64,000 nt of DNA, from IMG/VR virus record IMGVR_UViG_3300032116_000009; one strand, 5' to 3'. Every line of letters starts with the position of its first letter. The stretch's first letter is position 1. Of the stretch, positions 38,186 to 38,262 are shown one piece after another. The notes beneath the pieces were generated by a model, which did no database searches, was not told the DNA's origin, and saw only the letters and a list, made by a program, of their open reading frames with translations. Both the position numbers and the translations under genes were made by a program. This DNA is from a virus. Taxonomy: Duplodnaviria; Caudoviricetes.

Positions 38186-38262
38186 TGGTATCCATGAGAG
38201 GACTCGAACCTCCAACAAATAGATCCTTAGTCTATTGCCTCTTCCAATTGGGCTACATGGAT
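38186..38262 (-). tRNA. tRNA with AAG anticodon (Leu-like), short variable loop, CCA encoded
   Basis: AUAGA-CUAAGGA-UCUAU; Leu-type D-arm GCCCAAUUGGAAGAGGC; A73. Confidence 0.85.

Follow-up and report, generated by a model that had tools for sequence, protein, structure and literature searches.

The 77-nt gene at positions 38186..38262 (minus strand) of the window, by which we mean the whole 64,000-nt stretch of DNA analyzed here, very probably encodes a functional type I leucine tRNA of a phage, tRNA-Leu(AAG), that is charged by leucyl-tRNA synthetase (LeuRS), reads CUU codons, and belongs to a mobile lineage of short-armed leucine tRNAs. This interpretation draws on the structure of the gene, its conservation and covariation, its LeuRS identity elements, the use of CTT for leucine across the phage proteome, and the wide distribution of its relatives. 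The window is part of a T4-like, Kyanoviridae-like cyanophage genome with a GC content of about 37%. Its closest annotated relatives are the Synechococcus phages S-PM2 and S-CREM1, parts of whose tRNA arrays are 78-82% identical to that of the window. On the minus strand of the window, ARAGORN and Rfam revealed 28 tRNA genes together with a permuted tmRNA of the cyanobacterial type.

The tRNA-Leu(AAG) gene, which includes an encoded CCA, was delineated by ARAGORN, Rfam, its cloverleaf, and covariation, and it scores 57.0 bits against the Rfam model RF00005 (gathering threshold 29, E=2.3e-10). The acceptor stem has 7 bp (AUCCAUG/CAUGGAU) and is followed by U8 and A9. As seen in the sequence and in the alignments, the D-arm (38237..38253, minus strand) is of the leucine type, with a 3-bp stem (GCC/GGC) and an 11-nt D-loop, CAAUUGGAAGA, whose positions are A14, A15, U16, U17, G18, G19, A20, A20a, G21, and A22. 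An anticodon stem of 5 bp (AUAGA/UCUAU) closes the loop CUAAGGA, numbered C32-U33-A34-A35-G36-G37-A38, and the anticodon A34-A35-G36 (38226..38228, minus strand; CTT on the plus strand) is invariant in 18 orthologues. All 18 orthologues keep the 5-nt length of the variable loop UUGUU (38214..38218, minus strand; positions 44-48), whose last nucleotide, the partner of A15, is an invariant U48. The T arm reads GGAGG-UUCGAGU-CCUCU, and the discriminator A73, encoded together with the CCA at 38186..38189 (minus strand), is invariant in all three of our alignments. The original prediction had described a tRNA with anticodon AAG, G37, A73, a leucine-type D-arm with A15:U48, CCA, and a 5-nt variable loop, and each of these features was found by ARAGORN, Rfam, and direct reading of the sequence. 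It had also pointed, correctly, to another leucine tRNA of the window with a normal long arm, namely the 83-nt class II tRNA-Leu(UAG) at 36750..36832 (minus strand; ARAGORN and cloverleaf), which has the same D-loop layout. A class II tRNA has a variable arm of at least 10 nt with a stem-loop, and the 5 nt of tRNA-Leu(AAG) fall short of this length. The gene agrees instead with the published definition of type I tRNALeu, that is, a leucine anticodon and a variable loop of 4-5 nt, with a class II tRNALeu alongside (PMC6614811). A reading of the locus on the plus strand was rejected, as the loop would be UCCUUAG without U33 and the whole array lies on the minus strand.

Short-armed leucine tRNAs proved to be widespread in phages. 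With only these 77 nt as the query, blastn matched annotated tRNA-Leu genes of Bacillus phage P59, Myxococcus phage Mx1, mycobacterial phages, Felix-O1-like phages of Citrobacter, Escherichia, Shigella, and Salmonella, and a T5-like Pectobacterium phage. All seven phage records that we examined contain leucine tRNA genes of 74-77 nt with UAG or UAA anticodons, and S-CREM1 has a 73-nt Leu(UAA). An alignment of ten short phage leucine tRNAs shows no variation at U8, A9, G10, C12-A15, G18G19, A20a-G21-A22-G23, C25, A26, U48, and A73, in contrast to the remaining stems. When one genome per prokaryotic species was scanned with the same pattern, nine matches were obtained, eight of them in cyanobacteria, and all nine lie in long tRNA arrays with several short leucine tRNAs (CAA, CAG, AAG, and sometimes UAA). 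For example, the trn operon on plasmid delta of Nostoc/Anabaena PCC 7120 encodes four leucine tRNAs (CAA, UAG, GAG, UAA), all of 75-78 nt. In the alignment, the Leu(AAG) copies of the cellular arrays are plainly homologous to the phage copies; when these copies and the class II comparator are added, U48 is only nearly invariant.

The leucine-type D-arm is a distinctive mark of these tRNAs. We defined it strictly by a 3-bp stem with enforced pairing and by A14 A15 N N G18 G19 N A20a G21. Of the 639 tRNAs of our collected loci, 56 of the 86 with leucine anticodons, short and long, have such an arm, vs one of the 553 others. We rejected a looser D-arm pattern, which also matched tRNAs with a 4-bp D-stem (Ala, Asn, Trp). 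The sole non-leucine tRNA with the strict D-arm is a 'tRNA-Gln(CUG)' on plasmid delta of Nostoc sp. PCC 7120 (L042 2316-2392), and judging by its D-arm it may be a leucine-bodied tRNA with a glutamine anticodon.

The closest relatives of the window's tRNA outside the AAG group are mostly short Leu(UAG/UAA/CAA) tRNAs of other phages and cyanobacterial arrays (17 of the 22 top matches), and sequence comparison found no close paralogue among the other tRNAs of the window. As part of the overall explanation that we favor, it is quite likely that the body of this tRNA belongs to a short-armed tRNALeu lineage that spreads horizontally among many phage families and cyanobacterial long arrays, and that it derives neither from the host class II gene nor from another tRNA of the array. 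The original prediction had regarded the switch from the long-armed to the short-armed class as one half of a doubly unusual tRNA. Such leucine tRNAs turn out to be common in phages and mobile arrays, and they have a precedent in Streptomyces coelicolor (PMC6614811).

A more far-reaching version of this view holds that the short-armed leucine tRNAs of phages and of cellular L-arrays represent one ancient, horizontally travelling 'portable' chassis, characterized by the near-invariant D-arm UAGCCCAAYNGGNAGAGGCA, U48, and A73, in which the loss of the arm was adaptive for mobile elements and the AAG version forms the cyanophage/cyanobacterial branch. We regard it as speculative and rather unlikely. 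If it were true, arm loss might let the LeuRS of many hosts charge the tRNA while it evades nucleases or other defenses that recognize class II tRNAs. A related alternative places evasion first: the short-armed body would have been selected mainly to escape or soak up a host tRNA-targeting nuclease or defense that recognizes class II tRNALeu, with decoding being secondary. That short-armed leucine tRNAs recur, both in numerous unrelated lineages of phages and in mobile arrays induced by stress (PMC8421152), would fit such a function, as would the maintenance of the short shape beside class II leucine tRNAs in the same phage arrays. However, our literature search found no bacterial nuclease directed against the long arm of tRNALeu, an anticodon-loop nuclease would not be evaded by a loop identical to that of the host tRNA discussed below, and the match to codon usage (CTT makes up 34-41% of leucine codons) is already a sufficient reason for the gene. 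On balance, evasion as the primary function appears improbable.

The conservation of tRNA-Leu(AAG) itself was analyzed in IMG/VR, which we scanned for a leucine-type D-arm followed by a CUAAGG loop. Nineteen contigs matched, and 17 of them carry a tRNA-Leu(aag) of 75-77 nt. Eleven of these 17 orthologue contigs have cyanophage-type arrays, and the order Trp-Leu(AAG)-Gln recurs in most of the latter. Two further, unrelated phage groups have Leu(AAG) copies with wholly different stems and the same D-arm and anticodon loop. The copy in contig L019 is 100% identical to the window's tRNA over positions 1-73; together with the other orthologues among these 17, it rules out that the AAG anticodon is a sequencing error, a concern raised by the original prediction. 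In six of the IMG/VR contigs (L014, L018, L021, L022, L023, L028) we also observed a tRNA with the amber-suppressor anticodon CUA (ARAGORN 'Pyl'), which hints at stop-codon recoding in the respective phages.

Folding of a single sequence is uninformative for a tRNA, and the structure was therefore assessed by covariation. Indeed, the minimum free energy fold of the tRNA-Leu(AAG) sequence mis-pairs the D and anticodon arms and has a z-score of -0.54 vs shuffles; a single-sequence fold that is no more stable than shuffles is common for tRNAs. In the alignment of 18 orthologues, which contains 11 distinct sequences, all 220 of 220 cells form standard pairs. Changes on both sides are seen in 15 of the 20 pairs, a number that was reached by none of 500 shuffles, while controls with slid pairing gave 1-4 pairs. 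On this comparative evidence, the tRNA-Leu(AAG) gene is real and under selection. The same data bear on the notion that the locus is a non-functional relic, in which case a tRNA gene in decay would have lost its variable arm and persist as a passenger of the array. A relic would not be without parallel, as three of the 26 genes of the Anabaena array are pseudogenes (PMC8421152), and the modest z-score given above could be read the same way. It is nevertheless very improbable in view of the perfect pairing in all 11 distinct orthologue sequences, the compensatory changes, the invariant loops and the 5-nt variable loop kept across three unrelated phage groups, and the near-intact recovery of the array region by about ten metagenomic studies of freshwater and lakes.

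The amino acid accepted by the tRNA can be predicted from its identity elements. Only three synthetases (AlaRS, SerRS, and LeuRS) ignore the anticodon; AlaRS requires G3:U70, and SerRS requires G73 and a long arm. To our knowledge, no anticodon-reading synthetase would accept AAG. The alanine mark G3:U70 and the serine marks G73 and long arm are all absent from tRNA-Leu(AAG), and pair 3:70 is C-G or U-A in all orthologues and never G:U. In E. coli, recognition by LeuRS relies on A73, A14, the Levitt pair A15-U48, G18G19, and A20a, and neither the anticodon nor the long arm is needed; tRNALeu variants from which the long arm and the anticodon arm have been removed still accept leucine (PMC9976931). 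The complete LeuRS identity set (U8, A14, A15, G18G19, A20a at index 21, U48, and A73) is present in the window's tRNA, and it is invariant in the 18 AAG orthologues and in the ten short phage leucine tRNAs.

We then compared the codon usage of the window with that of S-PM2, in which Leu(AAG) was not found and the only leucine tRNAs are Leu(UAA) and Leu(UAG), both of class II. The comparison covered 17 ORFs that do not overlap one another and have homologues in S-PM2 (4398 aligned codons). Among them, CTT ranks first within the leucine family (153 of 370 codons, or 41%). CTT is aligned with leucine in S-PM2 in 72% of cases vs 69% for the other five leucine codons pooled (Fisher p=0.56), a test that shows CTT to be leucine for protein function and is blind to low-level mistranslation. 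The unfiltered ORF set, in which overlapping and antisense frames are included, led to the same conclusion (71% of CTT aligned with leucine). Since CTT is aligned with leucine as often as the other leucine codons, CUU stands for leucine in this phage.

Precedents for the charging of short-armed leucine tRNAs exist in two bacterial systems. The type I tRNALeu(CAA) of S. coelicolor is leucylated by the single LeuRS of that organism, whereas the E. coli LeuRS and one Streptomyces LeuRS did not charge it (PMC6614811). Because of these two rejections, a short-armed tRNALeu is not accepted by every LeuRS, and the outcome could vary with the host enzyme. In the trn operon of Anabaena PCC 7120, 23 of the 26 tRNAs are aminoacylated in vivo and present in polysomes (PMC8421152). 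As this operon has four short leucine genes and at most three silent ones, at least one short-armed leucine tRNA is charged in Anabaena. Taken with the identity elements, these analogies make it most likely that tRNA-Leu(AAG) accepts leucine rather than another amino acid and reads CUU.

The recoding of CUU envisaged in the original prediction, in which a class-I body would be charged by a synthetase other than LeuRS so that CUU would specify, throughout or in part, a different amino acid in infected cells, could appeal to a shape unlike that of canonical bacterial tRNALeu, to the reassignment of CUN codons by odd tRNAs in yeast mitochondria (PMC7609411), and to the rejection of one type I tRNALeu by E. 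coli LeuRS, but it is extremely improbable given the unexceptional alignment of the commonest leucine codon, the missing alanine and serine marks beside invariant LeuRS determinants, and the competition for the same codons that would come from two other tRNAs, the class II Leu(UAG) of the window and the Leu(AAG) of the probable host.

The adenosine at position 34 had been considered the other unusual property of this tRNA, and in E. coli-centered textbooks A34 is indeed unusual outside tRNAArg. The picture differs in cyanobacteria. We sampled 301 cyanobacterial genomes with a pattern search in which most matches were at the level of a reversed-pattern control, so that only a recurrent exact motif, found in 14 small genomes of 1.6-2.9 Mb, was taken further. 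All five examined copies from these small genomes are chromosomal class II tRNA-Leu(aag) genes of 82-84 nt, whose loop CUAAGGA is identical to that of the phage tRNA. A pattern-level search of the same five genomes found no tRNA-like Leu(GAG). Thus a class II tRNA-Leu(AAG) with this loop is a normal chromosomal gene in small-genome cyanobacteria, and there is a bacterial precedent for its editing: the Streptococcus deaminase TadA converts tRNALeu(AAG) to IAG, in a report that also notes a tRNALeu(AAG) gene in Prochlorococcus (PMC13249217). The phage tRNA therefore probably mirrors the decoding solution of relatives of its host, a link made through genome size and the Prochlorococcus remark. 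As in TadA substrates, A34 is encoded in the gene itself, and it is invariant in the phage orthologues. The identity of its loop with that of the host class II tRNALeu(AAG) makes a conversion of A34 to inosine in the phage tRNA plausible. A 490-nt metatranscriptome contig (X15) covers positions 37764-38253 and thereby 68 of the 77 nt of the gene, with partial or no coverage in other RNA runs; as assemblies from libraries that may contain DNA, these contigs do not establish transcription or mature ends. The RNA-library contigs have no T>C change at 38228, although assembled contigs cannot reveal the modification of a mature tRNA.

Other A34 tRNAs were observed in the same setting. The window has a second extra one, Thr(AGU), located two genes off at 38337-38408 (minus strand) and having one base in common with the Gln gene. 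Related arrays contain Val(aac) (L012 and L015), His(atg) (L013 and L026), and Asp(atc) and Asn(att) (both in L034). In some of these array tRNAs A34 may stay unmodified, because deamination would lead to misreading of the two-codon boxes (His, Asp, Asn). The recurrence of A34 tRNAs in the arrays suggests a general strategy for NNU codons, possibly with an unmodified A34.

We propose the following functional scheme for the type I leucine tRNA. The gene would be transcribed along with the minus-strand array, and RNase P and 3' processing enzymes of the host would excise the tRNA. It would then be charged with leucine by the host LeuRS, presumably through A73, A14, A15-U48, G18G19, and A20a, and its A34 would read CUU, the most used leucine codon of the phage, by Watson-Crick pairing with U. 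If the host TadA makes I34, as it probably does on the host tRNALeu(AAG) with the identical loop, CUC and CUA would also be read. In either case the tRNA could add decoding capacity for an AT-rich phage, with a likely selective benefit. The usual role of phage tRNAs is to supply codons favored by an AT-rich phage, and a CUU reader, whether by Watson-Crick pairing or by inosine, fits this role. In agreement, CTT accounts for 34-41% of leucine codons in the conserved genes of the window vs 27% in their S-PM2 homologues.

A review describes the long variable arm of tRNALeu as present everywhere save in animal mitochondria (PMC9976931), and the only studied bacterial exception, the type I tRNALeu of S. 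coelicolor, was called rare (PMC6614811). Like the window's tRNA, the S. coelicolor tRNALeu(CAA) (Fan et al. 2019, PMC6614811) combines a leucine anticodon and a short variable loop with a class II tRNALeu alongside. In contrast, it is chromosomal and actinobacterial with anticodon CAA, while the window's is phage-borne with anticodon AAG; the S. coelicolor LeuRS does not use A73, which is invariant in the window's lineage, and the E. coli enzyme, as mentioned, leaves the S. coelicolor tRNA uncharged. The short-armed leucine tRNAs of cyanobacterial L-arrays, such as those of the Anabaena/Nostoc PCC 7120 trn operon (PMC8421152, PMC4758250), are clearly homologous to the window's tRNA, with an identical D-arm, a near-identical anticodon arm, the 5-nt variable loop, and A73. 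They likewise sit in dense mobile tRNA arrays with an HNH endonuclease. Arrays of this kind are enriched in Leu(AAG) and Thr(AGU), the two isoacceptors whose gene diversity index is higher in organisms that carry arrays (PMC4758250). The L-arrays differ in residing in cellular genomes or plasmids and in being induced by translational stress, whereas the window's copy sits in an array of a lytic T4-like cyanophage. The papers on L-arrays are silent on the missing arm (PMC8421152, PMC4758250). The 74-77-nt tRNA-Leu(UAG/UAA) genes of Felix-O1-like, T5-like, Herelleviridae, Mx1, and mycobacterial phages share the D-arm UAGCCCAAYNGGNAGAGGCA, U48, A73, and the short loop, but they have U34 anticodons and other hosts.

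Two further systems resemble the window's tRNA in part. The tRNALeu(AAG)/(IAG) of Lactobacillales (PMC13249217) and the cyanobacterial chromosomal copy have the same anticodon and the same expected decoding of CUU/CUC(/CUA) after TadA editing; the chromosomal cyanobacterial copies that we examined differ in being class II housekeeping tRNAs of 82-84 nt with another D-stem and acceptor stem. Animal mitochondrial tRNALeu has the type I shape and uses A73 and A14 as identity elements (PMC9976931), but it is organellar and degenerate, is served by a dedicated mitochondrial LeuRS, and has no sequence relationship to the phage tRNA. Our literature search found no account of short-armed tRNALeu in phages and no biochemical characterization of one. 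Type I tRNALeu is already known but under-appreciated, and to this knowledge the present analysis adds the AAG branch of cyanophages and L-arrays, a codon test at the proteome level, and the class II counterpart of the host. The window's locus and its relatives present short-armed leucine tRNAs as routine cargo of phages and mobile tRNA arrays, in which the LeuRS identity elements are strictly kept. For studies of LeuRS recognition they constitute a natural set of minimal substrates, and in annotation they are named by anticodon only. With respect to phage tRNA function, the tRNA suits the phage's preference for CUU and has a counterpart in the Leu(AAG) of the probable host, and it gives no indication of a new genetic code.

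Within the array, tRNA-Leu(AAG) is flanked by tRNA-Gln(UUG) (38265..38337, minus strand), directly 5' in the transcript, and by tRNA-Trp(CCA) (38111..38184, minus strand), directly 3', both called by ARAGORN, so that the order in tRNA orientation is Gln-Leu-Trp. In S-PM2 and S-CREM1, Trp adjoins Gln without a leucine gene between them, the order being Arg-Trp-Gln-His-Met. Leu(AAG) and Thr(AGU) are thus the window's additions inside this order. An HNH endonuclease ORF (37526..37996, minus strand; Pfam PF01844, E=2.9e-17) lies within the array, with the tmRNA/Ser(GGA) genes on one side and Arg(ACG) on the other. Homing endonucleases are known in the tRNA regions of T4, and the HNH ORF can be likened to them. 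A comparable HNH gene lies next to the trn operon of Nostoc PCC 7120, and an HNH endonuclease is a mobility hallmark of long tRNA arrays (PMC8421152). The presence of such a gene in the window's array, the Nostoc operon, and other mobile arrays is consistent with a horizontal spread of the short-armed lineage. Ten ORFs around the array were scanned with Pfam, and neither a synthetase nor a deaminase was detected among them.

Several other elements were noted in or near the array. Two RNA motifs associated with cyanophages, manA and wcaG, were identified by Rfam: manA (36427-36634, minus strand; 100 bits) lies inside the tRNA array, and wcaG (29052-29156, minus strand; 42.6 bits) overlaps the 5' end of an ORF for an NAD-dependent epimerase/GDP-mannose dehydratase-like protein (27918-29066). 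The auxiliary metabolic genes near the array (30431-32963, 33478-34512, 35782-36318, and 42209-43678, all on the minus strand) encode two tandem radical-SAM/SPASM enzymes, a 6-phosphogluconate dehydrogenase, a ferritin-like protein, and a carbamoyltransferase. The permuted two-piece tmRNA of cyanobacterial type (37097-37396, minus strand; Rfam cyano_tmRNA, 116.6 bits) has the tag ANNIVAFSRSKSTALV and is conserved in related contigs (L024 4628-4927 and L025 10298-10591), the tag peptide of the 249-kb contig L024 being different from the window's by one residue. An Rfam tRNA match at 37054-37125 overlaps the end of the tmRNA, and ARAGORN makes no call there. Finally, an 85-nt tRNA-like gene of class II shape (38569-38653, minus strand) was reported by ARAGORN as 'tRNA-?(Ala|Cys)(gc)' with a 6-nt anticodon loop and scores 46 bits with the Rfam tRNA model. 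It is conserved in two related phage contigs (L010 382-468 and L024 6544-6629), each of which has a normal tRNA-Cys(GCA) gene as well, and so it is not simply a broken Cys gene.
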